Below, in pieces: positions 2,447 through 50,920 of a stretch of 64,000 nt of DNA (positions within the stretch are counted from its first letter, which is position 1; every line of letters starts with the position of its first letter). The position numbers were made by a program, and so were the translations under genes. Under the pieces are notes generated by a model that was not told where the DNA came from, did no database searches, and worked only from the letters and a program-made list of their open reading frames with translations. This DNA is from Candidatus Parcubacteria bacterium (GTDB lineage: Bacteria > Patescibacteriota > Minisyncoccia > Phycocordibacterales > UBA2100), in contig QZJK01000011.1 of NCBI GenBank assembly GCA_003599295.1, positions 13,372 through 77,371 of the forward strand. The letters are read 5' to 3'.

Positions 2447-2457
2447 CGGAGGAAGAC

Positions 2458-2700
2458 ATGTCTACCAGCAACCTTCTCTCGGCGGAGCTGACGAGGACGC
2501 TCAACGAGTTGCTGATCGCAGCCCGGAAGGCCCAACTCTCAGTCACCGAGGCAACAAGGAAGATCTCGGAACAACTCGAGGACTTGGGATTGGACCGAGG
2601 CTTCGTCATCGTCGAAGAACTCGTTATCACTCCAGGTCTTCAGGGAGCAAGGGTGGTTCTTCAGTTCCTCGGCGGAACTGAAGAAACTATCACGGTGTGA
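2458..2700 (+). CDS. Hypothetical small protein, 80 aa.
   Basis: Good RBS ggaggaagac before the ATG and host-like GC. No recognisable motif. Confidence 0.4.
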   Translation: MSTSNLLSAELTRTLNELLIAARKAQLSVTEATRKISEQLEDLGLDRGFVIVEELVITPGLQGARVVLQFLGGTEETITV

Positions 2701-2715
2701 CCGTGACTCGATATC

Positions 2716-2749
2716 GGCCGCGGCAGGGTTCTATCCCCGCCGCGGCGAC
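2716..2749 (+). terminator. GC-rich hairpin cggccgcggc-N14-gccgcggcg followed by acttcttta. Possibly the terminator of the 2458-2700 gene and/or the island boundary.
   Basis: Palindrome read directly from sequence. Its loop, agggttctatcccc, resembles a tRNA T-loop. Confidence 0.3.
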
Positions 2750-2930
2750 TTCTTTATGCCGGGAAGCGCAATAAGAGAAACTGCGAATCTATGACCCAAG
2801 TGGGACAGAATTGGAACCAGCTTATCACAGAGCTAAATCAGTGGCACCAGTTTGGCCGCGATTATGAGAATGCCTGCTTATCAGGCAAAAAACAGGCATT
2901 GGAGTTGGCCAGATGAAGTGCCTTTAGGGA

Positions 2931-3287
2931 TTAGAACAAAAGAGAAAGTAAAGAAAGGGCGGCTGCAACAACGGCAGTAACCAACCCCACAAAACCAATC
3001 GGCTCTTTATAAAAATGCTTGCGAATGAAACCGCCCCAACTATCGCCCAGTGCAAATAAATATTCCGCCTCATCCGTTAAGAAAAGTCGCGATTCATTGG
3101 AAAGTTGTTGTCCAAGCCGGTTATTTGTTCGTATCCAATTCCCATCCGCTTCTCTTAATCGGTCATATATCACTTCTTCCCCAACTTTAAGGCCTCGGGA
3201 GACTTCTTTCTTCGTGGTGTTCAAATCAATACCTCTATGAGACTTAAGATACGTATAAATCTCTTTGTCTATTTCATTGGTTTTCAC
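2931..3287 (-). CDS. Hypothetical tail-anchored membrane protein, island-borne. Possible GTG/TTG start.
   Basis: AT-rich ORF with a C-terminal hydrophobic helix (GFVGLVTAVVAAALSLLSLLF). The longer ORF to 3527 would overlap the opposing 3327 ORF. Confidence 0.3.
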   Translation of the reverse strand: MKTNEIDKEIYTYLKSHRGIDLNTTKKEVSRGLKVGEEVIYDRLREADGNWIRTNNRLGQQLSNESRLFLTDEAEYLFALGDSWGGFIRKHFYKEPIGFVGLVTAVVAAALSLLSLLF

Positions 3288-3701: not shown

Positions 3702-3961
3702 GCATAAACATCACAAAGGTGGCGCAAGAAGAATTCCGGTGCTAGTCTGATAAGCACAGGTTGAATATTGGCTCGTGAGAGCAAGACCTAAACCATCGCT
3801 TCGGCGGTGGCATGGTCGGGTAGACCGGTAAAGGACAGAAAACCCGTTGTGGGAACTGCCTTTACCGGCCATGTCGGGAAACCGGCGTGGATGGGGCTTC
3901 GGCTCCGTCAACCCGCAGCGGGCTTTGTGTTTTATCGGATAAAGTGATAAATAGATTGCGT

Positions 3962-5571: not shown

Positions 5572-5765
5572 TCCCATGATTAGTGTCGAGAAGTGCAGGG
5601 AACTATTGGGCGATGAGAGCCTCACAGACGAGCAAATTGAGGCTCTCAGAACCGATTTATACGAGATGGCGCAACTTGCCTTCGAGACGTGGGTGCACGA
5701 AAAATACGGTTCCAAATATCCCATTGGGTCATTGCCGGATTCACTATGAGCGCTACAGTTTAGCT

Positions 5766-7295
5766 ATGGGGAATGAAGGTCAAAAAACAAGTATCATTTA
5801 CGCAAGAGTCTCTTCATGGGAGCAGGTTTCGAACACCAGCCTTGAACGGCAAGTGCGCGAATGCAGAGAGTATGCGGAGCGGAACGGTATCACTATCATC
5901 GCGGAGCCGTTCATTGAGGAGGGCGAGTCTGCAAAGAGCGCAGACAGAACTCAGTTCCAAAAAGCACTGAGCTTTTGCGCTACCAAGAAAAACAAAGTTG
6001 GATATTTAATCGTGCACAAAGTAGACCGCTTCGCTCGCAATCAAGACGATCATGTTGCCACACGGGCATTTCTCAAACGATACGGAGTGCAACTACGCTC
6101 AGTGATGGAACCGATAGACGAGAGCACAATCGGACGACTTCAAGAGGGTATCCTCTCGGTGTTTGCGGAGTTCGATAACAATGTGCGAGCGGAGAGAAGC
6201 AAAAACGGGATGATAGAGAAAGTGAAGAAAGGCATTTGGGTATGGAGGCCTCCACTTGGCTACAAACGACTCACTAAAGGCGGCAACATCGTGCCTGAGG
6301 AAGAAACAGCCCATTACATCCAGCTGATATTCGAGGAATATAGCAAAGGCACTTATAGTTTTCAGGCGTTGTCCGATTTCATGGAAAAACGTGGATTCAG
6401 GACGAGCACCGGTAAAAAACCGTGCGCACAACTCATGGAAAAGATTCTTCGCAACCCTGCTTACTTCGGAACGATTCGAGCGTGGGGGCATGAGATTCGG
6501 GGTGCATTTCCTGCAATAGTTAGTGAGGAGTTGTATTGGAAGTGTCAGCCGGAGTTGCGCAGCAGGTTTGCCATAGTAAATCGTAGTATCACCAATCCGG
6601 CATTTCCTCTCCGCAAGTTCACAATTTGCCCTGAGTGCGGCCGCCCGCTTACAGGAAGCTTCTCCACCGGCAGAAAAGGAATGAAATACCCTTACTATCA
6701 TCACCAGAAGCAATCATGCTCTGCTGCGTCGTTTATCCCGAAGGAAACGCTGGAACAGCACTTCGTAGAGTTCCTACAAGAAATTAGTCCGCGTGCGCGG
6801 AACGAGAGGCTATTTAAGGCAGTTGTCGTTGATTTATGGCAAAAGAATTACAAGAAGTTGGATGAGGACAACGTGCGTGTCCGTAGGGAGATAGAATGGC
6901 TTGAGGCAGAACGTCAGCGGGTTTTTGATATGCACCGCACTGGCAAATATTCGGATGACGAGTTTTTAGAGCAGAAGCACCTTGTAAACATTCAGATTCA
7001 GCAAAAGAAGAATCTACTCGATGATAAGCGCATTGAGGAGTTCAACATGGACGAAGCACTTACCTATTGCTTCAACTACGTGCGCGAAAGTGGCAAGACA
7101 TGGAAACGGCTTGAGAAGGTTCCGGCGATACGTGTGCGGTTCCAAAAAGCCGCGTTCCCTGAAAAAGTGACTTTTGACGGCAAGAAATTTGGAACCAAGA
7201 AAATGTCGCTCGTTTACGAGCTGAATCAGGGGAAGAACCCCAAAAAATCTCAGATGGTGACCCTATCGGGAATCGAACCCGAGTTAACAGCTTGA
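5766..7295 (+). CDS. Large serine recombinase (resolvase/integrase family).
   Basis: N-terminal resolvase catalytic region IIYARVSS..Q..SLERQ. Then DRFARN, a recombinase domain and a zinc-ribbon (CPECGRP...). The last ~13 codons are antisense of tRNA-Glu, so the true C-terminus may be slightly different. Confidence 0.85.
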   Translation: MGNEGQKTSIIYARVSSWEQVSNTSLERQVRECREYAERNGITIIAEPFIEEGESAKSADRTQFQKALSFCATKKNKVGYLIVHKVDRFARNQDDHVATRAFLKRYGVQLRSVMEPIDESTIGRLQEGILSVFAEFDNNVRAERSKNGMIEKVKKGIWVWRPPLGYKRLTKGGNIVPEEETAHYIQLIFEEYSKGTYSFQALSDFMEKRGFRTSTGKKPCAQLMEKILRNPAYFGTIRAWGHEIRGAFPAIVSEELYWKCQPELRSRFAIVNRSITNPAFPLRKFTICPECGRPLTGSFSTGRKGMKYPYYHHQKQSCSAASFIPKETLEQHFVEFLQEISPRARNERLFKAVVVDLWQKNYKKLDEDNVRVRREIEWLEAERQRVFDMHRTGKYSDDEFLEQKHLVNIQIQQKKNLLDDKRIEEFNMDEALTYCFNYVRESGKTWKRLEKVPAIRVRFQKAAFPEKVTFDGKKFGTKKMSLVYELNQGKNPKKSQMVTLSGIEPELTA

Positions 7296-7329
7296 AAAGC
7301 TGCTGTCCTAACCACTAGACGATAGGGCC
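7255..7329 (-). tRNA. tRNA-Glu, anticodon TTC, CCA encoded.
   Basis: Minus-strand sequence GGCCCTATCGTCTAGTGGTTAGGACAGCAGCTTTTCAAGCTGTTAACTCGGGTTCGATTCCCGATAGGGTCACCA folds as a cloverleaf with anticodon loop TTTTCAA. Confidence 0.8.
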
Positions 7330-7410: not shown

Positions 7411-7497
7411 GGAAGCGTGGCTGAGTGGTCGAAGGCACCGCACTCGAAATGCGGCATGGGGGAAACTCCATCGGAGGTTCGAATCCTCCCGCTTCCG
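7411..7497 (+). tRNA. tRNA-Ser, anticodon CGA, with long variable arm.
   Basis: GGAAGCGTGGCTGAGTGGTCGAAGGCACCGCACTCGAAATGCGG...GGAGGTTCGAATCCTCCCGCTTCCG. Anticodon stem is ccgca/tgcgg with loop ctCGAaa. Confidence 0.8.
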
Positions 7498-7508
7498 CAG
7501 CAATAGTT

Positions 7509-11867: not shown

Positions 11868-12764
11868 TTATTCGCGATTAAGCAGGGCGACGCGATACAT
11901 CGCAAACATGAGGACAACAGCGGCAGCATACTGGGTCCACGCAAGTACCGTGCCGTACAAAAAGTAATCGATGAAAATAGCGGTGAGCGGGAACGCGAGC
12001 TCGACGATGGTCGAGACGCTTGCCCGCGTGTGCTTGAGGCCCCGATAGTATATCCAAAGCGCGGCCATCCCCGTCGAGAATGCAATAAGCGCAAGTGTCC
12101 CGTATTGAACGAATGTAATCTCTCCGAGAGTCGGCGCGGCGCCAAGCGCGAATACGAACACGAGTGCGATAGGGACCGTGAGTAGGAATCGAAGGCCTGT
12201 AACGAATGTGTGCGAGTGGTTGAGAAGCACGTAGCGGGAAAATGCGGTTGATGTTCCCCATGCCGCCGCCGCGAGGAGCGCGTAGAGCGCCGCAACGACG
12301 TACGCTCCGCCCTCGGAGAAATTCACGAGACCATTCGGGAACGTGACGAAATAGCCGGCCGTGAGCGCGAGCGCCGCCCACGCAACATACCCTCTCGTGA
12401 TCCGTTCTTTAAGCAGAAGCCAAGCCGCGAAAATCGCGAAAAGCGGTTGAAGCTTTTGGAGAAGGAATACGACGGAAAATTGGATGAAATTCACTTTGAG
12501 GAGAGCCGTCGTGAAGAAAAGCGTCCCCAAGACTCCCGAAAAAAGCGCGACGAGGCCGATGGCCCCCCACTCGTGCTTGTTCAGCTTCTCCCCTTTCCAT
12601 GCGCGGAACAGGAAAGGCGAAATGAGAATGAGCCCTATCAAGTGTTCGAAGAACACTATCGTGACCGGGGGAAGACCGAAAAGCGAGCGGCGAAGGATGC
12701 CATCGAGAGCCCAGAGAATAGCGGCTATGAAAATAAGGAACGGGCCCGACGACATATATTGCAT
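11868..12764 (-). CDS. EamA/DMT-family transporter.
   Basis: About 10 predicted TM helices in two repeated halves. Start trimmed to MQYMSSGPF because an ArsR terminator lies at 12788-12815. Confidence 0.7.
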
Positions 12765-12787
12765 ACGAGAGTACGTGATATGAGTAA

Positions 12788-12815
12788 TAAAAAAACCCCG
12801 CTCGCTCGGGGTTAT
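12788..12815 (-). terminator. Rho-independent terminator for the arsR-family operon. On the minus strand: ccccg-agcgag-cgggg then TTTTTTT.
   Basis: Stem plus a U7 run, read directly. Confidence 0.6.
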
Positions 12816-13002
12816 GACAGACCACTCTAAAAAGAATGGCTTTGTCCTTCTTTCATCCCGACTGTACGGTCGGCACTGGAATCTCACCAGTTCGTGTCTT
12901 TTTACAGACTCGCGGGCTTTACCGCCGATTGGGACTTACACCCAACCCCGAAGGAACATGCTTAGTATACACGATTTTGAGTCTGTACGGTACCGCTCAA
13001 AC

Positions 13003-15508: not shown

Positions 15509-15575
15509 TGGTGCCGGCGCCAGGAGTTGAACCTGGGACCTAGCGCTTATGAAACGCTCGCTCTAACCACCTGAG
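15509..15575 (-). tRNA. tRNA-Met, anticodon CAT. Elongator Met or Ile2-type; these cannot be distinguished by eye. CCA is encoded.
   Basis: GCCGGCGTAGCTCAGGTGGTTAGAGCGAGCGTTTCATAAGCGCTAGGTCCCAGGTTCAACTCCTGGCGCCGGCACCA. Anticodon loop ttCATaa. Confidence 0.75.
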
Positions 15576-15576
15576 C

Positions 15577-15668
15577 TACGCCGGCCTAGTGAGGAGCAAA
15601 AAGGATGCTAGCGTCCTTTTTCTCCGAACGCCGCCGGAGTATGAGAAATACTCGATTACGCCGGCGTA
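15577..15668 (-). repeat. Conserved tRNA upstream leader repeat, copy 2, in front of tRNA-Met(CAT).
   Basis: Homologous to 15393-15469. It contains a copy of the tRNA-Met 5' end (gccggcgta) plus an inverted partner. Confidence 0.5.
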
Positions 15669-15973: not shown

Positions 15974-16045
15974 AGCGGGGTGGAGCAGTAGTAGCTCGCA
16001 AGGCTCATAACCTTGAGGTCGCAGGTGCAAGTCCTGCCCCCGCAA
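15974..16045 (+). tRNA. tRNA-Met, anticodon CAT, initiator-like (fMet).
   Basis: aGCGGGGTGGAGCAGTAGTAGCTCGCAAGGCTCATAACCTTGAGGTCGCAGGTGCAAGTCCTGCCCCCGCAA is near-identical in blocks to E. coli tRNA-fMet (GGGGTGGAGCAG, GGCTCATAACC). The 1:72 pair is unpaired (A:A) and A11:U24 is present. There are only 2 G:C pairs at 30-31 rather than 3. Confidence 0.7.
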
Positions 16046-16217
16046 CAAAAATGTAGAGATAGAAAACTTCCGCAAGTTTATTTTTGATGCGGGGACAGGA
16101 CTGGGAGAGGGTCGGAGAACGGGAGTTTTCTGTGAAGGAGAGCAGTGAGCGGAGCGAGCGTTGAGAACCGTGGGTTCTCAAAGAGGAGCGGAGCGACGAG
16201 TCTAGCCCCCCGCAACA
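16046..16217 (+). repeat. tRNA-trailer repeat element C, downstream of tRNA-fMet. It ends in an 11-nt direct repeat of the tRNA 3' end (cccccgcaaca).
   Basis: Inverted copy of the tRNA 3' end tgcggggacaggact at 16088-16102. Then a GGGAGAGGGTCGGAGAAC block, gagcggagcgagcg and the perfect hairpin ttgagaacc-gtg-ggttctcaa (16161-16181). Direct repeat at 16207-16217. Confidence 0.5.
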
Positions 16218-35764: not shown

Positions 35765-36673
35765 ATGGGAAATCTGGGTTTGCGTCCCTTATCAATATTT
35801 CTGCTTGTATGCGCGCTTGCGCTCCCAACTTCTGCCGGTGCTTTTGAATTCGAGTTGCCTCAAGCACACCCCGGTGAGATACATGAGCGCATTACCGCAC
35901 GACTCAATTCGGCACTTCAAGGTTTGTGCGACCGTTTGCAGGACGGCAGACTTCCATTCCTCCTTCCAGATTTCTGCACTCCTCCCGAACCTCCTCCACC
36001 ACCTCCCCCGATTGACGTATGCCCGAACGTCCCAGGCAACCAGGAGAGCGGCCCGTGCGCTGACGAAGAATGCGTCGCGGATGGCGGGACGTGGAATGGC
36101 GAATCATGCGACGTGCCTCCGCCCGAAGAGACTATCGGGCATGTCGTTATAAGCGAAGTGCACTACAACATAGATGTCGCGCATGGTGTGAACGGAACTA
36201 ACGACAACAACGAATGGGTCGAGCTGTATAACGGAACGAATGAAACTGTTGACCTCTCCGGTTGGACGCTCGCTGACAATAGCTCGAGTGACGCGCTTCC
36301 CGCGGGAACAGTTCTTCCATCGGGGGCATTTCTTATCGTGACCGCAACGACAAGTACGGCTGATTTCTGGCCCGACATTCCGGATGATGTTGAGGTCGTA
36401 GTTCTTGGCAGTCAGATAGGCAACGGCCTTGCCGCGGACGGTGATGTCGTACTCTTGCGGGATGACGAAGACACTCTGATAGACGCAGTTTCCTGGGGCG
36501 ATGACACGACTGCCTTTGACCCTTCGGTGCCTGGCGTAGCACAAGGAGAATCTATCGCGCGCACCTTACTTACTGTTGATACGGACACGGCGGCAGATTG
36601 GGAGGGGCGCGGAATCCCTTCACCGGGGCTCGCGGACGTCCCGCTTCCTTCTGGTGTACCGGAGACTTTCTAA
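35765..36673 (+). CDS. Secreted lamin-tail-domain (LTD) protein.
   Basis: Signal peptide MGNLGLRPLSIFLLVCALALPTSAGA and a poly-Pro linker. LTD signature VVISEVHYN...NEWVELYNGTNETVDLSGWTL...LPAGTVLPSGAFLIV. Confidence 0.7.
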   Translation: MGNLGLRPLSIFLLVCALALPTSAGAFEFELPQAHPGEIHERITARLNSALQGLCDRLQDGRLPFLLPDFCTPPEPPPPPPPIDVCPNVPGNQESGPCADEECVADGGTWNGESCDVPPPEETIGHVVISEVHYNIDVAHGVNGTNDNNEWVELYNGTNETVDLSGWTLADNSSSDALPAGTVLPSGAFLIVTATTSTADFWPDIPDDVEVVVLGSQIGNGLAADGDVVLLRDDEDTLIDAVSWGDDTTAFDPSVPGVAQGESIARTLLTVDTDTAADWEGRGIPSPGLADVPLPSGVPETF

Positions 36674-36765
36674 ATCTTTAGAAACGTCGAATTATTGGCT
36701 CGGTTTCCACATTTCGCGCACCGAAACGCGTTGCGTGAGTGCCCTTTGGGGCGCAAAATTGCGCT

Positions 36766-39700
36766 ATGCATGAGCCTTTTATGAAGGCGGGTTCTCGCGG
36801 TTCTTCAATTCTCGGAAGTATTCTCTTGCTCGCGCTCGCAGGAAGTGCGGCTGTGTCGTTTGAACCGTTTTTTTCGACTCCTTCCGACCAAGAACAATTT
36901 GCGGCAAGCAGTCTCGCGCTCGTCGAGGACGCTTCAACCCCAACGCAAACCTCCGCCGGACAAGAAACGGCAACGCAATCAGATTCGCTAGCTCCAGGAA
37001 CCGTCGTAGATTTTAGAGATCAGGTGTATAGCGTGTACTATTCGTGCCGGCAAGAAACGAAAGAAAAAAGCAAGGTGGATGAGCTCACGCAAACCTGCCA
37101 ACCGGGTTTTCTCTACACCATCTATGAAAGCGACGGGGTCATCTCCGTGTCTCCAAGCCCCGGCCCGCAAGGCAATGTCGCCTGTCCCAGTAATACGCCA
37201 ACGCGCGCGGGATCATGCAGCAACCCGGCATCTCCGAATCCGGTCTTAAGTTGCTGGAGCGGACAACCTTCATCCGGCGTCGTCTACTACGCTATCGGAA
37301 ACGAGAAGCCTCAATTCGCCGGAAATTGCGCATCCGGGCAGAAACTCGACGTCGCCGGAAATCGCCTCACCGGACTCAGTAAAACGCTCGATGCGGCAGA
37401 CCCGGAAAAACAGTCCGCCATCATGGCAACGGCGGACATATCTCCCACGCAACAAGCCACGCTGATGAATGCGTTTAACAACATACAATCCGGAGAACAA
37501 AAAGTGGAGGAGATAAGTGCCGAGCGGAACGATATCGAACAGCAGATAACAGCGTATGCGAACTGTACGAATCCCGCGAATCCGTGCACAACGGAACTGC
37601 AAGCGCTCCAAACACGCAGAGACGAAATACTGCGGGAACAGCGGATAGCTGAGAGCGAGCTTGACTCGCTTCAAAATAATGCCCAACGTCTGTTGGCCGG
37701 CGAACCGCCGGTGAGCACGTCCGGTACAACGAATTTTCCCGGCTATGATCTCCCTTCTCGCCTTGATTTTGCCCGAAATACAACGGGCTTCAACGGTAGC
37801 GGTTTTATTGGGAGCCCGGAGGCGCAACCATCTTCCCGTCCTATCGTAGCCTCGCCGCCGCAAACGCCGAATCCGACGGGGGAAATTGATTGGGGGAAAT
37901 TCTATAACCAAGGGTCGAGTTACCGACCGACACCCCAGCCGACCGGATCCGAAAGTACGGCAGGAACGGGGGCTCAGCCTTTTCAAGGTCCTCAATTCAC
38001 ACCGAGCTCCTATACGCCGCCCGGCATATCCGGTCCGAACAGGTTGACCGATGAAGAGCTCGCACAATTCCCTCCCGAGATCCAGCAGGCGGCTCAAAAA
38101 CAATGCGAGCTGGGGCGCTGTGCTCTCATGCATCGAATAGCTGGAAGTGATGCAACTTCCGCACAAGAAAAAGCGGGGCAAGTGACGCAGGTCGCGCTCA
38201 TAGGTTCGCCCAGTTGCTCACAAGTATCGATATCCGACTGTTTCAAGGCGGCCGATCTTCCTTACACGCTCGAGGGCCGCAAGCAAGTATGCGGAGCGCT
38301 GGGACTCGACTACTGCGACAGCGTGGGGAGCGCAAAAACGAACGTGCGAATGGCGGAGGACGTGAAAAGATTCTCCCAAACGGGTACGGTCACTGAAGTT
38401 ACGCAAACACGGACTGTTACCATTGACTCGCGCGGCTCCATTCTCGGAGAAGAAATTACGGAGAAAAGTACGGAATCACAAGTTATCGCTCCATCATACC
38501 AAGAGGGCGCGACGTTGCGTGATCTCGAAGCTTTCTACGATAGGGCTCAAGAAACCCAGAACGGGGTGGAGACCGTATATAAAGTGACGGGAGACGTGTG
38601 CGGGGTCGTCGGCACGAGCAGTAGCGACCAAACCTGCAGCTACTATCGGCGATTGGCTGACGCGCAAGGCGGCGTGTTGTCGAAAGACCAGTTGCCTTCT
38701 TATACCCGACAACAGCTCACCGCGGTCGAGACGGCCGGAAAAGCTATCCAAACACCGTTCCCGACCGCAGGAACTGTTTCCGATGTTGCGCCGAGAACGG
38801 CGGGCGGAACACTCGAAGCAGAGAATCTCGCGCCGCTTTTTGACGCAGAGAGGGTGCGGAACGCGGAAACAGCGCGCCTGGAAGGACTGGCTACGTATTA
38901 CAAAGAACAACAGCAAGAGCGAATCATCGAGACCACGTCAAGTCGCCTTCAGGGCCTTGCTGATTTTACGGAAGCGCAACAAGTGGCTCGGGCAAATGAG
39001 GCTTCGATACAACGCTGGGAAGGCATGGCTGCTTATGCAGAAGCGCAACGGGAAGCCCGCGCTCGTTCGAATGATGCTGCTTCCGCGCGGCTTCAAGGCC
39101 AAGCAGATTTCATAGCGCGTACCAATTATTTGGAGAACCATCCGACAACGCAAAATATGTATGACGCGTTGATAGCGGCGGGCCAAACGCCCGCAGAGAC
39201 CCAGCAGTATATAGACAAAGTGGTTTCAACCGGTGCTTGGAATACCGGGACGGAGGCGCAAGTGGATTCATACCTCGCGCACAACTACGACCGCATCGTC
39301 GAGTACGGTAAAGAGCGTACGGCGCTCGGAGAAGCTCTTCTCGGGAAAATAGTAGCGTCAGGGCCGCCACCGCCCGTAAGTGATATCCAAGTCACTTCCG
39401 CACCGCTTGTCCCGATACCGGGCTCCACAGAAAGCCTATCTACGAGAGATCTCATCAATCAAATCGTGACAGGAGGTTCACAGGCCCCTTCCGCGGCAAA
39501 CGAACTTTGGGATAGAGCGACCACGCGCCCTGCATGGCTTGACCCCGCGATAAAGCCTGCCGCGGATCTCGTCTCAGATCTGACCGGAAAAGATCAGGTA
39601 CTTTTCGGTGTGCAAGGACAACAATCGCAGGCTACGGATGAAGGAGTCCTTACGATAGATACGGGCATCAGGAGAGACTTTTCAATCGCCGATCCTGATC

Positions 39701-40455
39701 TTACGACAAGCGAACTCTCGCGAATTCTCCAAGAACGCGAGTTTGTCCAAACAGTGCCTTCCGGCTCGTCGATTTTCCAAACGTCGCTTCCGGTGACCCC
39801 CTCGGCCGCAAAACTCATTCCTTCGACATTGCCGAGCCCGACACTAACGGACATCGATTATGACGCGACCTTCTCGCGTGCAGTGCAAACGTACGGCGCA
39901 GACAGTATAGAAGTTCTCGGCGTTCAAAGCCTACTTTCGAATCCGGATCTCCGCGATGTGAATGAACTTGAGGCGCGTCTCCAGGTGTATGACTTGGCAC
40001 CCGTCCCTTCGCAAGAATTTCTCGGGACTGATCGGAGCATTCCCATCCCCTCTTCAGGTTACGTGCCTGTCGAAAGTAGTATCGGCTGTTGGTCCCCGAA
40101 CGTTGATTGCGGACTCATGAACAGAATGCCGGCGGAAGGGCAAACGGTCGTATTCACTCCGTCAGATGGGGGAGGGACCGAATATTCCTACTACACGCCA
40201 CCTACAGGTGTTATGTCGGCTCTGAACCCGTCCTCTTGGTTTACCCAGACCGGAACGGTTTCTCAAACTCTTCTTCCTGCAGGCGCTTCAACCGTTACCG
40301 TTACGAACGACGGCGGCGTCTTGTCTGTAAGAGTCGGCGGTTCGTCGAGCGTACGTGGTGTATACTCTTCTCAATCCGCCACATCGGCTACGTACGGACA
40401 GATACTCTCGGGACTTTCCGGACAACCCTTAAGAATTACAGCACCCGGTCAATAA
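36766..40455 (+). CDS. Very large secreted/surface protein, about 1230 aa, low complexity (Ser/Thr/Gln/Ala/Pro-rich).
   Basis: Signal peptide MKAGSRGSSILGSILLLALAGSAAVS. A long uninterrupted ORF with coiled-coil-like stretches and no catalytic motif. Confidence 0.65.
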   Translation: MHEPFMKAGSRGSSILGSILLLALAGSAAVSFEPFFSTPSDQEQFAASSLALVEDASTPTQTSAGQETATQSDSLAPGTVVDFRDQVYSVYYSCRQETKEKSKVDELTQTCQPGFLYTIYESDGVISVSPSPGPQGNVACPSNTPTRAGSCSNPASPNPVLSCWSGQPSSGVVYYAIGNEKPQFAGNCASGQKLDVAGNRLTGLSKTLDAADPEKQSAIMATADISPTQQATLMNAFNNIQSGEQKVEEISAERNDIEQQITAYANCTNPANPCTTELQALQTRRDEILREQRIAESELDSLQNNAQRLLAGEPPVSTSGTTNFPGYDLPSRLDFARNTTGFNGSGFIGSPEAQPSSRPIVASPPQTPNPTGEIDWGKFYNQGSSYRPTPQPTGSESTAGTGAQPFQGPQFTPSSYTPPGISGPNRLTDEELAQFPPEIQQAAQKQCELGRCALMHRIAGSDATSAQEKAGQVTQVALIGSPSCSQVSISDCFKAADLPYTLEGRKQVCGALGLDYCDSVGSAKTNVRMAEDVKRFSQTGTVTEVTQTRTVTIDSRGSILGEEITEKSTESQVIAPSYQEGATLRDLEAFYDRAQETQNGVETVYKVTGDVCGVVGTSSSDQTCSYYRRLADAQGGVLSKDQLPSYTRQQLTAVETAGKAIQTPFPTAGTVSDVAPRTAGGTLEAENLAPLFDAERVRNAETARLEGLATYYKEQQQERIIETTSSRLQGLADFTEAQQVARANEASIQRWEGMAAYAEAQREARARSNDAASARLQGQADFIARTNYLENHPTTQNMYDALIAAGQTPAETQQYIDKVVSTGAWNTGTEAQVDSYLAHNYDRIVEYGKERTALGEALLGKIVASGPPPPVSDIQVTSAPLVPIPGSTESLSTRDLINQIVTGGSQAPSAANELWDRATTRPAWLDPAIKPAADLVSDLTGKDQVLFGVQGQQSQATDEGVLTIDTGIRRDFSIADPDLTTSELSRILQEREFVQTVPSGSSIFQTSLPVTPSAAKLIPSTLPSPTLTDIDYDATFSRAVQTYGADSIEVLGVQSLLSNPDLRDVNELEARLQVYDLAPVPSQEFLGTDRSIPIPSSGYVPVESSIGCWSPNVDCGLMNRMPAEGQTVVFTPSDGGGTEYSYYTPPTGVMSALNPSSWFTQTGTVSQTLLPAGASTVTVTNDGGVLSVRVGGSSSVRGVYSSQSATSATYGQILSGLSGQPLRITAPGQ

Positions 40456-41230: not shown

Positions 41231-43387
41231 ATGCAGCCAAACGATGATATATCGAAGCATTTTCGTCTTACTCCAGTACAGTCGGCCGCTCTAAAACGGC
41301 TCGGTTTGGGGACGATAGGCGCTCTCCTCCGGCATTTCCCCGCGCGCTATGAGACAGCGGGTGCTTCGGGAAGAGCCGGAGGGCTCGTACCGGGTACGAA
41401 AGTGACCCTTATCGGAACTCTTTCAAAACTCAAGGCCAGAAAACTTTGGAAAAGCCGCAGGAACGTCACCGAAGGATGGTTCGAGGATTCTTCAGGTCGC
41501 GTAAAAGTCATGTGGTTCAACCAGCCCTACATGGCTTCATACGTCCCGCAAACCGCGCTCGTGAAAGTAAGCGGGACGGTCGGAGGAAAAGAAGACCGCC
41601 CGTACATCGCGAATCCGGAGGTTGAGGCCATTCCAGCCGGAGCCGCGCTAGAAGGAATGTTCACGGGAGATACAGAGCCCGAGAGAGCATCTGTGTTCCC
41701 CGTGTATCCCGAGACGCGCGGCATCACGACAAAATGGTTCTACCACGCGCTCGAGCGGGTCTTCGCGAGCGATATTTTAACGCATGTTGCCGACCCTATC
41801 CCCTCCGATGTGCGCGACCGGTATCATCTCCCCGATCTCGCGCGTTCGCTTCTCGCGATGCATCGTCCATCGAATCCCCGCGAGGCGGAAGCTGCGCGAA
41901 AGCGCTTCGCGTTCGAGGAGATCTTTTCCATTTCGCTCACCCGCTCGCGCGAGCGGAGCGAAAACGACGCACAAGCTTCGTTCCCGATACAGAATGCCGA
42001 GGCTCTTGCCGAACGATTCCTCAAAACGATCCCCTTTCCGCCGACCGAGGCACAAAAGCGCGCGATCTCGGATATTTTGAAAGATTTCGGGGAACGACAC
42101 CCGATGGCGCGGCTACTCGAGGGTGATGTCGGGAGCGGCAAGACTCTCGTCGCGGCGGCGAGTGCCTACGCGGTCGTGAATTCTCGGCCGCCGAATCGCG
42201 AATCAGGTACGCTCCAAGCCGCCTACATGGCTCCGACGGAAATACTCGCGACCCAGCATTTCCAATCGTTCATCGAATATTTCTCGCACCTTCCCATCAA
42301 TATCGCGCTCATGACCGGAAGCGGCTGCAAGAAATTCCCCTCCAAAGTGAAACGCGGCGCCGCAACGGAGATATCTCGCGCGCAATTATTGAAATGGGTC
42401 GCGAACGGAGAGATAGCAATGGTCGTCGGCACGCACGCTCTCATCCAAAAATCCGTAAAATTCCAGCACCTGGCCTACGCAATAGTGGATGAACAGCATC
42501 GCTTCGGCACTCGCCAAAGGCGAGCGCTCGCGAGAAAGGGTGATGCGGCGCCGCATTTTCTCTCTATGACCGCAACACCCATTCCCCGAACGCTCGCGCT
42601 CACACTTTATGGCGACCTGGATCTCTCACTCCTCGACGAATTGCCGCCCGGGCGTGCGAAAGTGACGACCTCTATCGTGAAGCCAGAAGATCGCGAACGT
42701 GCCTACGCAGCAGTTCGAAGCGCGCTCTCGCGCGGAGAGCAGGCATACGTTATCTGTCCGCGCATCGAGGAACCCGATCCGGAAAAGTGGAACGCGCTCC
42801 AAGCGAAATCGGCAAAAGCCGAGGCAATCCGACTGAAAAAAGAAGTGTTCCCGAAACATGAGGTGGGGCTTCTCCACGGCGCGATGAAGAAAACGGAAAA
42901 AGAGAGTGCGATGCGCCGTTTTGCATCGAATGAAATACAGATACTCGTCGCGACATCGGTCGTCGAAGTTGGCATCAACGTGCCGAACGCGACGGTGATG
43001 CTCATTGAGGGGGCAGAGCGGTTCGGATTAGCCCAGCTCCATCAATTGCGCGGCCGCATCCAAAGGAGCTCGCGCCCACCGCATTGTTTTCTCCTCCCTG
43101 AAACGTCCGGGGAAATGGCGACGAAGCGCTTGCGCGCGCTCGAAAAATCGGACGACGGATTCAAGCTCGCGGAGGCGGACCTGGAAAGCCGTGGCGCGGG
43201 TGATCTCCTCGGGAGAAAACAATGGGGCATATCGGACCTCGGCATGGAAGCGCTGAAAAATCTGAAGCTCATTCGCGCCGCGCGCGAAGAAGCCGGGCTG
43301 CTTATTAAGCAAGACCCATCGCTCTCAAAGTATCCGGAGCTTCGCAAGCGCATCGAAGCGACCGCGATTGAACTGCACAGCGAGTAG
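41231..43387 (+). CDS. recG: ATP-dependent DNA helicase RecG.
   Basis: Wedge domain, Walker A GDVGSGKT, DEQH box and helicase C motifs. 718 aa. Confidence 0.95.
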   Translation: MQPNDDISKHFRLTPVQSAALKRLGLGTIGALLRHFPARYETAGASGRAGGLVPGTKVTLIGTLSKLKARKLWKSRRNVTEGWFEDSSGRVKVMWFNQPYMASYVPQTALVKVSGTVGGKEDRPYIANPEVEAIPAGAALEGMFTGDTEPERASVFPVYPETRGITTKWFYHALERVFASDILTHVADPIPSDVRDRYHLPDLARSLLAMHRPSNPREAEAARKRFAFEEIFSISLTRSRERSENDAQASFPIQNAEALAERFLKTIPFPPTEAQKRAISDILKDFGERHPMARLLEGDVGSGKTLVAAASAYAVVNSRPPNRESGTLQAAYMAPTEILATQHFQSFIEYFSHLPINIALMTGSGCKKFPSKVKRGAATEISRAQLLKWVANGEIAMVVGTHALIQKSVKFQHLAYAIVDEQHRFGTRQRRALARKGDAAPHFLSMTATPIPRTLALTLYGDLDLSLLDELPPGRAKVTTSIVKPEDRERAYAAVRSALSRGEQAYVICPRIEEPDPEKWNALQAKSAKAEAIRLKKEVFPKHEVGLLHGAMKKTEKESAMRRFASNEIQILVATSVVEVGINVPNATVMLIEGAERFGLAQLHQLRGRIQRSSRPPHCFLLPETSGEMATKRLRALEKSDDGFKLAEADLESRGAGDLLGRKQWGISDLGMEALKNLKLIRAAREEAGLLIKQDPSLSKYPELRKRIEATAIELHSE

Positions 43388-45051: not shown

Positions 45052-45120
45052 GCCCGTATTCTCGCACGCCCCCGGAAGTGCACAATCACCGGAATCCACA
45101 CGTGCTTCATGTACCTTCAG

Positions 45121-45193
45121 TCCGCCTGCCTGGACTCGAACCAGGAACCCCAGAGGTATAAGCTCTGTGCTCTAACCATTGAGCTACAGGCGG
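45121..45193 (-). tRNA. tRNA-Ile, anticodon TAT, which reads AUA.
   Basis: CCGCCTGTAGCTCAATGGTTAGAGCACAGAGCTTATACCTCTGGGGTTCCTGGTTCGAGTCCAGGCAGGCGGA. Anticodon stem cagag/ctctg with loop ctTATac. Confidence 0.7.
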
Positions 45194-45228: not shown

Positions 45229-46380
45229 CTAGCGAATTACTTTAGCGACTGCTTTAGCGACGCGCTTGTCAAACATGTCGGGCACTATTTTGTTTGCGGT
45301 CGGTTTGGGGACGAGCGCGGCTATGGCGCGCGCGGCCTGAAGCTTCATATCGTCGGTTATCTTTCGCACCCGATTATCGAGTGCTCCGCGGAAGACTCCC
45401 GGGAACGCGAGTGAATTATTTATCTGATTCGGAAAATCCGAACGGCCGGTGGCGATGATAGTAGCACCTCCCTTCTTCGCCTCATCCGGCATAATTTCCG
45501 GAGTAGGGTTCGCCATCGCAAAAATGATTGGATTCGATGCCATTTTTTTGACCATTTCCGCAGAAACGAGATTCGGTTTGGATACTCCGATGAATACATC
45601 CGCGTCGGTAAGCGCCTTCTTCAAATCCCCTCCCTCTTCGGCAAAGATAATCCCCTCCTCAATGAGCTGCTTCTTCGTAGTATTCAGGTCATTCCTTCCT
45701 TTCCATACTACTCCGACGCTATCAACGACGATGATATTTACTTTCGGCGCGAATTTCTTGAGAAGCCGCACTGTCGCGACACCGGCGGCCCCGACGCCGC
45801 TTACGGCCACCCAAGAATTGTTCAGGTCCTTCCGGATGACTTTCATCGCATTGATGAGGCCGGCCAAAACGACGATTGCAGTTCCGTGCTGATCGTCGTG
45901 CATCACCGGTATGTCGAGTGCTTCGACAAGCCGCCGTTCGACATCAAAGCATTTCGGCGCCGCGATATCTTCCAAGTTGATTCCGCCGAACGCCGGCGCA
46001 ATGCGAATGACCGTTTCAACGATTTCACCGGCATCTTGCGTGTCTAATACTATCGGCACTGCATCCACTCCCGCAAACGTTTTGAAAAGCGCGCACTTCC
46101 CTTCCATGACGGGAAGTGCGCCGAGAGCGCCGATGTTTCCGAGTCCGAGAACAGCGGAGCCGTCCGAAACGACTGCGACAGTTCTTCCCTTCATTGTGTA
46201 CTCCCGAGCCTCCTTCGGATGCTTACCAACGTAATCCGCAACAAAACCGACTCCGGGCGTATACACAAGCGACAGGTCCGCGCGATTTTTGACCGGCGTA
46301 GCCGATTCTATACGAAGTTTCCCGCGGAGCTTCTTGTGGAGCGCGAGCGCCTTCTTCGTAATGTCTTGCTTTTTAGCCAT
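45229..46380 (-). CDS. NAD(P)-dependent malic enzyme.
   Basis: LSLVYTPGV...AVVSDGSAVLGLGNIG...VSGVGAAG are malic-enzyme NAD-binding motifs. Start trimmed to MAKKQDI. Confidence 0.85.
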   Translation of the reverse strand: MAKKQDITKKALALHKKLRGKLRIESATPVKNRADLSLVYTPGVGFVADYVGKHPKEAREYTMKGRTVAVVSDGSAVLGLGNIGALGALPVMEGKCALFKTFAGVDAVPIVLDTQDAGEIVETVIRIAPAFGGINLEDIAAPKCFDVERRLVEALDIPVMHDDQHGTAIVVLAGLINAMKVIRKDLNNSWVAVSGVGAAGVATVRLLKKFAPKVNIIVVDSVGVVWKGRNDLNTTKKQLIEEGIIFAEEGGDLKKALTDADVFIGVSKPNLVSAEMVKKMASNPIIFAMANPTPEIMPDEAKKGGATIIATGRSDFPNQINNSLAFPGVFRGALDNRVRKITDDMKLQAARAIAALVPKPTANKIVPDMFDKRVAKAVAKVIR

Positions 46381-46444
46381 AGCGCGCAGTATACATATTC
46401 TCTCAAAACAAGGAACCTCCGGCCGCGCGTATCGCGGACGGAGG

Positions 46445-46822
46445 TTAGGCGGAAAAAAGCCGCCTGAAGAACAAAAATCGCAACAGGCCGACGATAAGGA
46501 ATGCCATTCCGAACGCAGTCCATTCCGTGAGTCCGAATAGCGCCATGCCGCTGAATTGAATGCCGAGGAACATACCATATGCCGCGCCCACAATGACAAT
46601 ATAAAGCGCCGGCTGCTGAAGCCACCTCGGCAGCGTGTCTTTGAATACCCAAGACTTGTAGAGCGCGAATTTTGCGATGGCGATGGGGACTATAAGAACA
46701 TTCGCCGTCATTGGAATGCTCATGCCGCTTTCAACCAGGATAGATCCCGGGAGAATACTTCCGGCATGAACGATACCCGCCGTCGCAAGATACCGTGTTG
46801 CTTGTCCGGTGATGTCGTGCAT
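46445..46822 (-). CDS. GtrA-family small membrane protein.
   Basis: 125 aa, four TM helices, GtrA-like layout. Confidence 0.55.
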   Translation of the reverse strand: MHDITGQATRYLATAGIVHAGSILPGSILVESGMSIPMTANVLIVPIAIAKFALYKSWVFKDTLPRWLQQPALYIVIVGAAYGMFLGIQFSGMALFGLTEWTAFGMAFLIVGLLRFLFFRRLFSA

Positions 46823-46884: not shown

Positions 46885-48003
46885 ATGGCAAACGATAAAA
46901 CGTTAACCATAAAAAAACCGTTCGATTCGCACCTGCATCTGCGACGGGGCGCGGTCTTGCGCGCGGTGACGCCCTATTCAACAAAACGGTTCGGGCGCGC
47001 CATCATAATGCCGAACACGGAACCGCCGATAGAAACTGTTGAGCAGGCTACAGAATACAAAAAAGAAATTCTCGCTGCTGTAAATCATCCTAGTGTTTTG
47101 CAAAACACTAGAATAGATGAGGCTGCGTTCGAGCCATTGATGACCTTCTACCTCACGAAAAATCTGACGCCTGCGGAAATAGAGAGAGGATTTTCGAGCA
47201 GTGAATGTAAAATATTCGCGGTGAAATCCTATCCCTATGGCGCAACGACGAACTCACAGTGGGGCTACCGGAATATTTTGGAAGCGAAGGATGTACTGAA
47301 AAAGATGGAAGAGGTCGGCATGCCGCTCCTTCTCCACGGCGAAGTGCATTTGAACGAGCGCGACGAGGAGGAAGACCCGTACGACGGCGAGGCGATGTTC
47401 GTGAAAGACACGTTGCCGCGACTTCTCGACATGTATCCGAAACTAAAGATATCGCTTGAACATATGAGCTCGCACGAGGCAATCGATTTTATGGAAAAGA
47501 ACGGTAAAGACGGCAAACTCATGACGACGGTCACGCCGCATCACCTGATGTATGACCGGAGACACGCGTTTTCCGGCGGCTACCGCGCGCTCCTGCATTG
47601 CAAGCCGCTCGTCAAAAAGCGCGAGGACCGTGAAAGACTTCGCGATATGGTGAAAAAAGGACTTCCGTTCGTGTCTGCCGGGACAGACAGCGCGCCGCAT
47701 CCGGAGAACAAGAAATTCTCCTCGTGCTGTGCGTTTGGGGTCTTCAATTCCCCCGTCGCCCTAGAGATGTACGTACAAGTTTTCGACGAACTCGGAAGCC
47801 TCGACAAGCTCGAAGGGTTTCTTTCGGTGAACGGCCCGCGCTTTTTCGGCTTTGAGCCGGACGCAAATACGCTCACACTCGTGAAAAAAGACTGGCAGGT
47901 GACCGAGCCAGTCGTGACGGACGAAGGGGTGAATCTGTGGCCCGTTGGGCACGTAAAACACGGCCTTGGGAACGAGACTTTCCACTGGCAGATTTCGAAC
48001 TAG
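46885..48003 (+). CDS. pyrC: Dihydroorotase.
   Basis: DSHLHLR metal-binding motif and a 372-aa amidohydrolase fold. Confidence 0.8.
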   Translation: MANDKTLTIKKPFDSHLHLRRGAVLRAVTPYSTKRFGRAIIMPNTEPPIETVEQATEYKKEILAAVNHPSVLQNTRIDEAAFEPLMTFYLTKNLTPAEIERGFSSSECKIFAVKSYPYGATTNSQWGYRNILEAKDVLKKMEEVGMPLLLHGEVHLNERDEEEDPYDGEAMFVKDTLPRLLDMYPKLKISLEHMSSHEAIDFMEKNGKDGKLMTTVTPHHLMYDRRHAFSGGYRALLHCKPLVKKREDRERLRDMVKKGLPFVSAGTDSAPHPENKKFSSCCAFGVFNSPVALEMYVQVFDELGSLDKLEGFLSVNGPRFFGFEPDANTLTLVKKDWQVTEPVVTDEGVNLWPVGHVKHGLGNETFHWQISN

Positions 48004-49970
48004 GCGAGCGGCTGGTGCTCGATGTCTTCTTTCTTTTTCGGCGTAATGCCGTTCGCGATAAGTACTTTCTCGAAATCCTCACGCTCGATAGTCTCCACTT
48101 CGACGAGCTTCGCCGCGATGGCATCCAACACTTTTCGGTGCTTCTTTAACACGTTCTCGGCCTTTTTAAGCGCACCGTCGACTATTTTCTTCACTTCCGT
48201 GTCTATCTGCGCGGAAAGTTCTTCGGACTGTTCGGAGGCCTCTATGCCGGCTCCGAATATCGTGCGGCCTTGGGAAGGCTCGAGCGCGATGGGACCGAAT
48301 TTCTCCGACATGCCGTAGCGCGTCACCATGTCGCGCGCAAGTGCGGTCAACACTTGAAGATCGTTCGAAGCACCCGTTGTGATGTCGCCGTATACCATCT
48401 TTTCCGCAACGTAGCCGCCAAGACTTACCGCGATATCATCCAAGAATTCGTTCTTTGACTGCATCTTCCTGTCTTCGAACGGAAGCTTCAGCGTGTAGCC
48501 TGCGGCACGCCCGCGGCTGATGATGGAAATCTTGTGGACCGGGTCCGCATACGGCAAGACCGATGAGATAAGTGCGTGCCCGGCCTCATGGTACGCGGTT
48601 ATCTCTTTTTCTTTTTTATTAAGTATGTGGCTTCTACGTTCGGGTCCGAGCATGACCTTTTCAATGGAGCGAATAAGGTCGTATTGCGTCAGCTCCTTCC
48701 TGTCCTCGCGTGCGGCGAGAATGGCGGCCTCGTTCATGAGGTTCGCGAGGTCGGCGCCGGAGAATCCTGGTGTGCGCTCGGCGATGACGGTAAGCGCCAC
48801 ATCGGGGCCAAGCGGCTTCTTGCGCGCGTGTATTTTCAAAATATCTTCGCGGTCTTTTCTATCGGGAAGGTCAATCACGACGCGTCGGTCGAAGCGGCCT
48901 GGGCGTACCAGCGCGGGATCAAGAACGTCGGGGCGGTTCGTGGCCGCCATGATGACGACTTTCTCGTTCGGCTCGAAGCCGTCCATTTCGACGAGTATTT
49001 GGTTCAACGTCTGTTCGCGTTCATCGTTGCCACCGCCGACCCCCGAACCGCGAACGCGCCCGATGGCGTCTATCTCATCTATGAAAAGAATGGCGGGTGC
49101 GGCTTTCTTTGCGACTTGGAACGTATCGCGCACGCGCGAAGCGCCGACGCCGACAAACATTTCGACGAATTCAGAACCGGAAATCGAGAAGAATGGCACG
49201 TTGCTCTCGCCAGCGACCGCTCGCGCAAGAAGCGTTTTCCCTGTTCCCGCAGCACCCATGAGGAGAACGCCTTTTGGTATGCGTGCACCGATTTGGATGA
49301 ATTTTTTCGGATTTTTCAAAAAGTCCACGATCTCCGTGAGTTCCATTTTCGCTTCCTTCGCACCCGCGACATCCGCGAATGTCACTTTCTGCACTTCATC
49401 CTCCGGATTTACGAGACGCGCCATCGAACGGCCGAAGGTGAACGCCTGCATGCCCGCGCCGCGCACTTGGCGTGAGAGGTACCAGATGATGCCGAGAATG
49501 AGGATGACGGGGATAAGAAGAGGTGCGAGCGTAAGGAACCAGTATCGGGCGCCGCCTTCGTCTTTCACTGTTATTTCAACAGTCGCGAGACTTTCCGGCG
49601 TTAATCCGTAATTAAAGAAGGTTTCTGTAAGCGACGCCTCGGATTCTTTGCGCGTTATTTTTTCGGAACCGTCCGCGTACGTTGCGGTCACCGATGTCCC
49701 TTCGACGAGAATGGATTCGACGAGACCCGCTTCGATATCGCCAACGAGCTGGGACAGAGATACCTCATTATTCTCGGCAACGACATACTGCCGCACGATG
49801 GAATAGCCGGCTGACAAGACGAGGAAAATCGCAAACGCGATGAGCATCTGCGTCCACATCGAAGGACCCTCCGGCGGCTTACCGAGGGGTGCCCTCCCTT
49901 TCCGCGGCTTTTGTTCTCCTTCCCGAAGATTGGCCATATACCGGCGAGTTATATCACAAATAGCTTCCAT
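48000..49970 (-). CDS. ftsH: ATP-dependent zinc metalloprotease FtsH.
   Basis: Two N-terminal TM helices, AAA Walker [12 protein letters not shown] region and zinc motif HEAGHAL. Confidence 0.95.
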
Positions 49971-50005: not shown

Positions 50006-50040
50006 CTTGCTACTTGCTACTTGATACTTGATACTTACTT
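50006..50040. repeat. Heptamer tandem repeat (tacttgc x2, tacttga x2, tactt) in the ftsH/smpB divergent intergenic region.
   Basis: Read directly: cttgctacttgctacttgatacttgatacttactt. Confidence 0.5.
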
Positions 50041-50045
50041 CCTGT

Positions 50046-50492
50046 ATGGCACTCATAGAGAACACACGTGTCGGATTCGATTACAACATCCTCGAAACCT
50101 TGGAGGCGGGGATGGAGTTGTTCGGATACGAAGTGAAATCGCTCCGAGCCGGCCAAGGCTCTTTGAAAGGCGCGCGCGTCGTCGCGCGCGGCGGAGAAGC
50201 ATACCTCGTCGGCGCATCCATTCCGCCATGGCAAATTGCGAACGCACCGAAGTCGTACGATGCGGAGCGCACCCGAAGATTGCTTCTATCGAAGAAAGAA
50301 ATAGCCCGGATATCCTCCGCGGAGGGAGAAAATGGCTTGACAATTGTGCCAATTAAGGTATATAATTCTCGCCGGAGGTTGAAATTGGCCATCGCGATAG
50401 TCCGCGGTAAGAAAAAAGCGGACAAACGTCAAACGATACGGAAACGCGAGGAGAAACGCCGGATAGAAAGAACATTGAAAACCAAAAAGTGA
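50046..50492 (+). CDS. smpB: SsrA-binding protein.
   Basis: MALIENTRVGFDYNILETLEAGMELFGYEVKS...; the basic C-terminal tail is typical of SmpB. Confidence 0.9.
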   Translation: MALIENTRVGFDYNILETLEAGMELFGYEVKSLRAGQGSLKGARVVARGGEAYLVGASIPPWQIANAPKSYDAERTRRLLLSKKEIARISSAEGENGLTIVPIKVYNSRRRLKLAIAIVRGKKKADKRQTIRKREEKRRIERTLKTKK

Positions 50493-50532: not shown

Positions 50533-50920
50533 GGGGGTGACTGGCTTCGACAAGGAAATCGACATATGTGTGCGCGGGCAACGCTGTAGCTGCGTTTCAA
50601 ACCGCTACACAAATTCAAGTGCGAACAAAGTAGCACGTGCAGTTTTGTCGCCCATTCAGTTGGGTGACCTGCAGTTCGCTTACGCGAAAGCCTAAGCGAC
50701 CGTCCACTAGGCTGATACTTGATTAAGCCTTCTTGGGCGTCACTTCATTCAAGCACTGAGTGTCGAATAGTCCGATCGACCTCTAAGACTAGGACTCGGC
50801 TTTGCGCGATTCTGTTCGTCCCTTACGCGCATCGCTTAAATCTTGAGACGATCTACGCCTCGTAGATACATACATACTGTTTTTCCTTGGACTCGGGTCC
50901 GATACCCGACACCTCCACCA
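50533..50920 (+). ncRNA. ssrA: tmRNA (transfer-messenger RNA).
   Basis: 5' GGGGGTGACTGGCTTCGACAAGGAAATCGAC is the canonical tmRNA start. The 3' tRNA-like end is GGACTCGGGTCCGATACCCGACACCTCCACCA. The internal tag ORF ends in ...LQFAYAKA-stop. It sits directly after smpB and is followed by a terminator. Confidence 0.85.

Follow-up and report, generated by a model that had tools for sequence, protein, structure and literature searches.

The gene described here raises the question of how the isoleucine codon AUA is read in the organism that carries it. The lysidine enzyme TilS is regarded as essential and present in nearly all bacteria, and tRNA-Ile with a UAU anticodon as a rare exception. A gene of the latter kind is found in the stretch of DNA that was analysed (64,000 nucleotides, called the window below). 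Comparison with its relatives indicates that it is probably a functional, chromosomally fixed tRNA-Ile(UAU), or tRNA-Ile3 in the nomenclature of tRNAscan-SE, which would read AUA with no need for a tRNA-Ile2(CAU) that carries lysidine.

Of the ten tRNA or tmRNA genes that ARAGORN calls in the window, one is a tRNA-Ile with anticodon tat on the minus strand at 45120-45193. The anticodon is the one given in the initial annotation, whose coordinates prove exact and to which the strand can now be added. The Rfam model RF00005 is matched over its full length at 45121-45193(-) with 70.8 bits (E = 1.9e-13; gathering score 29), which is the top Rfam tRNA score in the window. Read on the minus strand, the 5' part of the molecule is CCGCCUG UA GCUC AAUGGUUA GAGC A CAGAG CUUAUAC CUCUG, and after this last segment the 3' part continues as GGGUU CCUGG UUCGAGU CCAGG CAGGCGG A. 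The acceptor stem is a perfect helix of 7 bp (CCGCCUG/CAGGCGG), which opens with C1-G72 and includes the pairs G3-C70, C4-G69 and C5-G68. The D, anticodon and T stems consist of 4, 5 and 5 bp, respectively. In the anticodon loop, CUUAUAC, the anticodon U34-A35-U36 is preceded by U33 and followed by A37 and C38. The coordinates of this gene and of the other features of the window are collected in Table 1.

In an alignment of seven orthologues, 98.6% of the cloverleaf cells are paired, and seven pairs are altered on both sides; none of 500 shuffles attains this. When the pairing partners are slid by 1-3 columns as a control, only 28-46% of the cells are paired. The minimum free energy fold of the single sequence contains the acceptor and T arms only (z = -2.6). 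An incomplete cloverleaf is common for tRNAs folded from one sequence, and the covariance model and the covariation carry more weight than this partial fold. The clean cloverleaf with a UAU anticodon claimed in the initial annotation is thus borne out by ARAGORN, Rfam and covariation, and the feature is confirmed as a genuine, conserved tRNA-Ile(UAU) gene. A scan around the gene for promoters and terminators found none. The gene starts 35 nt past the stop codon of the malic-enzyme gene, so that co-transcription of the two is possible as a prediction.

Table 1. Features of the window, in order of position
Feature	Coordinates	Strand	Evidence and remarks
LOOT RNA (RF03000)	3785-3909	+	70.9 bits (gathering score 46.4); overlaps the starts of two unannotated ORFs
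Large serine recombinase ORF	5583-7295	+	Resolvase, Recombinase and Zn-ribbon domains; ends in or beside tRNA-Glu
tRNA-Glu	7255-7329	-	
tRNA-Ser	7411-7498	+	
EamA-family transporter gene	11868-12887	-	
FMN riboswitch	12841-12959	-	106.5 bits; directly upstream of the EamA-family transporter gene
Putative elongator tRNA-Met(CAU)	15509-15585	-	ARAGORN and Rfam; Silva 2006 rules; CCA encoded
Putative initiator tRNA-fMet(CAU)	15974-16046	+	ARAGORN and Rfam; Silva 2006 rules
Lamin-tail-domain ORF	35765-36673		Precedes the 1238-aa ORF
1238-aa ORF	36739-40455	+	No NCBIfam or Pfam match
recG	41231-43387	+	RecG equivalog NF008168, 722.1 bits (cut-off 718 bits); anchor across the tRNA from ftsH
tRNA-Ile(UAU)	45121-45193	-	73 nt; C1-G72, A73; no encoded CCA; ARAGORN, Rfam and covariation
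Malic-enzyme ORF	45229-46599	-	
ftsH	48000-49970	-	TIGR01241, 773.7 bits; synteny anchor
smpB	50028-50492	+	Pfam SmpB
tmRNA	50533-50920	+	ARAGORN and Rfam

The codon that this tRNA would serve is used heavily. In a heuristic gene set spanning 92% of the window, ATA occurs 17.6 times per 1000 codons and makes up 31.6% of the isoleucine codons; it is present in 65 of 68 ORFs, at a G+C content of 54% for the window. The meaning of the codon was assessed in five conserved genes of the window, where homologue residues were counted only if their codons were other than ATA, which avoids circularity. At the positions of ATA the homologues have Ile in 62%, Val in 17%, Leu in 11% and Met in 2% of cases. 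The corresponding values are 51% Ile, 19% Val and 10% Leu for ATT, and 52% Ile, 24% Val and 10% Leu for ATC, while ATG positions align with Met in 57%. The profile of ATA is like those of ATT and ATC and unlike that of ATG. AUA is therefore isoleucine here, as the initial annotation had assumed, and since it is also heavily used, a dedicated decoder is needed. In FtsH and RecG of relatives that bear the TAT tRNA, the ATA share of isoleucine codons ranges from 0 to 80% (median 16.5%), and even relatives in which ATA is scarce retain the tRNA.

Position 34 is T, not the C that is the substrate of TilS, in the tRNA of the window and in every orthologue called by ARAGORN independently of any search pattern. 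Metagenomes were also scanned with a pattern modelled on the TAT orthologues that permitted C or T at position 34. It matched at least 120 contigs, with at least 94 TAT tRNAs and at least 29 CAT tRNAs; the latter number should be read with the fact that the pattern would miss typical tRNA-Ile2(CAT) genes, which have A38. The pattern demanded C32 and a pyrimidine at position 38, so that the constancy of these positions among the metagenome matches is imposed. The matches listed include 89 distinct TAT sequences, that of the window among them, and in all 89 the acceptor stem is paired throughout and the discriminator is A73. At 3-70 there is a G-C pair in 74, an A-U pair in 15 and a C-G pair in none, while the Met-type pair C3-G70 is present in 21 of the 22 distinct CAT sequences among the matches listed.

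These pairs can be compared with the discriminators of Silva et al. 2006 (PMC1635315), which were derived from 234 genomes with no CPR genome among them. In that work C3-G70 marks tRNA-Met and tRNA-fMet, a purine at position 3 or a pyrimidine at position 70 marks tRNA-Ile(CAT), and C4-G69 and C5-G68 are also frequent in tRNA-Ile(CAT). Judged by these rules, the TAT family bears the acceptor signature of tRNA-Ile2(CAT). Such an acceptor fits an origin by a C-to-T change at the wobble position, in accordance with the model of Taniguchi et al. 2013 (PMC3575796). Taken with A73, A37 and the reading of AUA as isoleucine, the Ile-type acceptor supports isoleucine identity of the tRNA.

Two further features vary among the distinct TAT tRNAs listed. 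C1-G72 opens the acceptor stem in 37 of the 89 and G1-U72 in 18; to our knowledge, it is unusual for bacterial tRNA-Ile to start with C1-G72. CCA is encoded by 30 of the 89 and is absent from 59, including that of the window. A separate group of tRNA-Ile(TAT) genes has the acceptor GGGGGAG/CUCCCCU (contigs L087, L089, L108, L113, L147, L149 and L170, also L171 and L114). The contigs of this group have a G+C content of 64-73% and neither ftsH nor recG nearby. For one of them, L170, an origin in Actinobacteria is suggested by its genes for a mycosin-like protease and an ATP-dependent DNA ligase. TAT tRNAs may be under-counted outside CPR as well.

The position of the gene on the chromosome is also conserved. 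In the window the tRNA gene is on the 3' side of ftsH, with pyrC and the malic-enzyme gene intervening, and recG is found across the tRNA. The first syntenic TAT tRNAs were found by a search of genome contigs with the neighbouring malic enzyme. A tRNA-Ile(tat) in the same neighbourhood of malic enzyme, cupredoxin-domain protein and recG is present in L001, in L081 (a 613-kb contig) and in L084 (the complete 859-kb Ca. Kaiserbacteria genome CP066682.1), whose FtsH proteins are 78%, 86% and 78% identical to that of the window. The 5' side of ftsH is occupied by smpB and the tmRNA in the window, L081 and L084. The tRNA-Ile(tat) was further found in L002, in L012 (the complete genome CP060229.1) and in L042. 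In total, ftsH is present in at least 46 TAT loci, and recG usually flanks the other side of the tRNA. Among the 46 TAT loci listed, ftsH is directly upstream on the same strand in 33 and convergent in 12, and the gap between ftsH and the tRNA is below 900 nt in 36. The insertion of pyrC and the malic-enzyme gene into this gap belongs to Kaiserbacteria-like genomes, the window included. Across the TAT loci listed, the identity of FtsH to that of the window is 47-86%, apart from two short weaker matches. On this synteny the ftsH-tRNA-recG arrangement appears both old and widespread within Parcubacteria. The initial annotation had called a UAU tRNA-Ile rare; this is correct for the literature and does not hold within the lineage, in which the gene is found widely and in conserved synteny.

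The FtsH protein also places the host. Its identity is 100% to RJQ34600.1, a protein annotated 'Candidatus Parcubacteria bacterium' from an 85.9-kb contig, and 82% to a protein of Candidatus Kaiserbacteria. The remaining genes of the window are typical of CPR: they include a type IV pilus cluster, biosynthetic genes are few, and many ORFs fall into no family. By these similarities the host is a Kaiserbacteria-like member of Parcubacteria/Paceibacteria (CPR). An affiliation with Saccharibacteria, taken from the labels of the nearest malic-enzyme matches, was considered and rejected, as FtsH groups the host with Kaiserbacteria/Parcubacteria. The Saccharibacteria label of L001 is itself doubtful in view of its Kaiserbacteria-like synteny and its 78%-identical FtsH. 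Two gene starts deserve comment. The window FtsH is 100% identical to the 619-aa protein RJQ34600.1 (P0002), whose length suggests that the true start of ftsH is near 49859. About 80 N-terminal residues of the malic-enzyme ORF are unmatched by any homologue, so that its true start is probably further downstream.

The explanation preferred here can be outlined as follows. U34 of the tRNA-Ile(UAU) would pair directly with the A of AUA and deliver isoleucine without lysidine. The tRNA would have descended from a tRNA-Ile2(CAT) by the change of C34 to T, and the gene, placed between ftsH and recG, would be ancient in the Kaiserbacteria-like lineage. The genes for TilS and tRNA-Ile2(CAU) would then have been lost, and the IleRS of the host would accept the UAU anticodon. 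Misreading of AUG by U34 may be limited by competition from tRNA-Met, by the ribosome, or by both, as in Mycoplasma mobile.

It is possible to consider another chemistry at the same position. A modification of U34, known or new, could restrict its pairing to A, so that decoding would still be free of lysidine and would differ from the mechanism of M. mobile. Such a possibility is suggested for M. suis by Taniguchi et al. (PMC3575796), and eukaryotes use a pseudouridine-A-pseudouridine anticodon (PMC3575796). With AUA used so heavily, fidelity against AUG should also matter. However, no U34-modifying enzyme is encoded in the window, which says little about the whole genome; the scan of 50 window ORFs gave no member of the U34-modification families, nor of the TilS or IleRS families. 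We regard a modified U34 as a tentative and somewhat unlikely explanation. As to the synthetase, lysidine-independent decoding of the M. mobile or Bifidobacterium type calls for an IleRS that recognises UAU, either with Arg or Lys at the position of E. coli Trp905 or of the eukaryote type (IleRS2). No window ORF longer than 800 aa matched an IleRS family, and an ORF screen for KMSKS gave no IleRS candidate in the window or in any of the TAT loci.

A second alternative is redundancy, in which the TilS and tRNA-Ile2(CAU) pair is encoded outside the window beside the tRNA-Ile(UAU), and AUA is decoded twice over. The co-occurrence of tilS with a TAT tRNA is documented (PMC3575796), and TilS exists in another CPR lineage. 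In the window itself, the SGGxDS PP-loop is found in no reading frame. A profile of the TilS N-domain, made from six TilS genes on CAT-type contigs, was combined with the PP-loop motif, and neither matched in the window or in the TAT loci (96 TAT-bearing sequences, 728 kb, with the ftsH flanks included). These 728 kb are part of the genomic content, mostly one syntenic region against genomes of about 1 Mb, and they have little power to exclude tilS elsewhere. The same screens recover TilS in six CAT loci, and for one of these TIGR02432 gives confirmation. In L081 and L084 no tilS is found within 10 kb of ftsH. All six TilS genes are on contigs that are not of the TAT type, and the FtsH of one of these, L155, is equidistant (57-60%) from all CPR FtsH proteins.

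The two CAT tRNAs of the window also bear on redundancy. Both are of the Met or fMet type, and their features fit an elongator tRNA-Met and an initiator, as had been proposed in the initial annotation, by the discriminators of Silva et al. 2006, which include no CPR genomes. The elongator candidate has G1-C72, C3-G70, G4-C69 and G5-C68, and its D stem has C11-G24 and U12-A23, unlike fMet. In the initiator candidate A1xA72 is unpaired, and the D stem has A11-U24 and G12-C23. They are the sole CAT tRNAs in the 728 kb of TAT-bearing DNA, a sample that gives no power on the absence of a tRNA-Ile2(CAT). Against redundancy there is also the fixation of the TAT gene in one syntenic position over a deep clade, as opposed to a sporadic presence, and the small size of CPR genomes, in which keeping both systems across such divergence would be unexpected. 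Redundancy is therefore judged to be improbable, and the loss of tilS in the host lineage, which the initial annotation had predicted for the genome and which goes with the reading of AUA by tRNA-Ile(UAU) without lysidine, to be likely.

Some details of the CAT tRNAs are of separate interest. The body of the initiator candidate is presumably close to E. coli tRNA-fMet. It has A1xA72 where C1xA72 is the usual bacterial initiator form; its anticodon stem has no more than two G-C pairs at the base (A29-U41), and its T loop, UGCAAGU, has G at the position of U55, a residue that is near-universal in tRNA T loops. Its Rfam score, 59.4 bits, is the lowest among the standard-length tRNAs of the window. 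In the six metagenome contigs with TilS (L093, L111, L129, L137, L144 and L155), a Met-type tRNA(CAT) is directly upstream of tilS; in L155 the tRNA begins at 2007, tilS follows at 2203-3210, and ftsH is next. We take this tilS-adjacent tRNA(CAT) of the six contigs to resemble the elongator tRNA-Met of B. subtilis. The order tRNA(CAT)-tilS-ftsH recurs, as opposed to ftsH followed by tRNA-Ile(TAT) in Parcubacteria.

The remaining two alternatives are very weak. A recent, decaying or mobile-element-borne gene without a core function, of phage or island origin for example, could be imagined from the serine recombinase gene beside other tRNA genes about 38 kb away, but the TAT gene is embedded among the core genes ftsH, recG and smpB, its surroundings are unremarkable in G+C, compensatory changes maintain all of its stems, and its retention in place across the wide divergence of FtsH rules out a recent or mobile origin for practical purposes. 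Reassignment of AUA (to Met, for example, as in many mitochondria) or charging of the tRNA with another amino acid is hardly credible: altered genetic codes do occur in some CPR lineages, but the residues opposite AUA are Ile, Val and Leu, just as for AUU and AUC, and very seldom Met, and the tRNA has A73 and Ile-type acceptor pairs.

With a lysidine-free tRNA-Ile(UAU) as the preferred reading, a broader proposal can be made, namely that a whole major branch of CPR, Parcubacteria/Paceibacteria, swapped the lysidine system (tilS and tRNA-Ile2(CAU)) for the ftsH-anchored tRNA-Ile(UAU). We give this proposal an even chance. If true, Parcubacteria/Paceibacteria would be by far the largest known bacterial clade without TilS, and changes of the IleRS, the ribosome or both, shared by the whole lineage, would stop AUG from being read as isoleucine. 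Should the lineage use UAU throughout, a rare exception would become a common solution, and pipelines for annotation in which three CAT tRNAs are expected would report tRNA-Ile2 as missing from its genomes. How AUA decoding arose would become testable across sister CPR lineages, since Saccharibacteria have TilS, and the IleRS and ribosomal decoding centre of the lineage would provide cases for the separation of AUA from AUG without a modified cytidine.

The kind of tRNA is already known, and the present one is a further case, from a phylum for which no earlier report was found in the literature searched. The tRNAscan-SE 2.0 survey gives 17 genomes in which tRNA-Ile(UAU) replaces tRNA-Ile2(CAU), and in a 2026 preprint the bacterial UAU tRNAs are still 'rare cases'. 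The literature search found no paper that links lysidine or tilS with Patescibacteria, CPR or candidate phyla, and the Minisyncoccus supplement mentions neither lysidine nor tilS. What appears to be unreported is the breadth of the trait in Parcubacteria and the fixed position between ftsH and recG, as against TilS in Saccharibacteria.

Other features of the window may be noted briefly (Table 1). The large serine recombinase at tRNA-Glu may mark an element integrated at the tRNA site. The EamA-family transporter behind the FMN riboswitch is perhaps a riboflavin importer of a host unable to make riboflavin. The LOOT RNA and the long ORF that follows the lamin-tail-domain ORF are recorded in the table.

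It is important to compare the present tRNA with the systems known from other organisms. In the archaea Nanoarchaeum equitans and Korarchaeum cryptofilum, which are small-genome and partly episymbiotic organisms, tRNA-Ile3(UAU) likewise replaces a tRNA with a modified C. These belong to another domain, however, and the replaced system is that of agmatidine and TiaS, not lysidine and TilS. Among bacteria, Lactobacillus casei and plantarum, Cyanothece PCC 7424 and Ferrimonas have a TAT tRNA together with tilS, and double decoding of AUA has been proposed for the two Lactobacillus species (PMC3575796). The TAT gene is found there in individual species or strains, while here it is syntenic over a deep lineage.

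Within the same superphylum, the cultivated CPR bacterium Southlakia epibionticum ML1 likewise reads AUA as isoleucine, through the canonical TilS and tRNA-Ile2(LAU), and there too ftsH is the neighbour (PMC10633639 supplement). In that genome tilS is directly upstream of ftsH and is marked 'ES' in two of the three essentiality calls listed; three tRNA-Met(CAT) genes are found within about 6 kb of tilS, and there is one tRNA-Ile and no TAT tRNA. In the window the place 5' of ftsH is taken instead by smpB and the tmRNA, the TAT tRNA is downstream, and the CAT tRNAs are two rather than three.

In Bifidobacterium and Neorickettsia, as here, a TAT tRNA is fixed in the clade, in place of tRNA-Ile2(CAU). 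These bacteria, which are from phyla other than that of the host, combine tRNA-Ile(UAU) with an IleRS of the eukaryote type and have no tilS. Haemoplasmas are also among the bacteria with tRNA-Ile(UAU). Another case is the tRNA-Ile2(UAU) of Mycoplasma mobile (Taniguchi et al. 2013, PMC3575796), in which a genome-encoded UAU anticodon likewise reads AUA and for which an origin from tRNA-Ile(CAT) by a wobble C-to-T change has been proposed. Experiments on M. mobile have shown that tilS is lost, that U34 is unmodified, that the IleRS has Arg865 and that the ribosome discriminates against AUG, while the present tRNA is known from its sequence, and its acceptor signature fits the same proposed origin. 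M. mobile is an AT-rich mollicute, whereas the present host is a CPR bacterium with 54% G+C, and the trait spans a deep lineage here rather than a few species.
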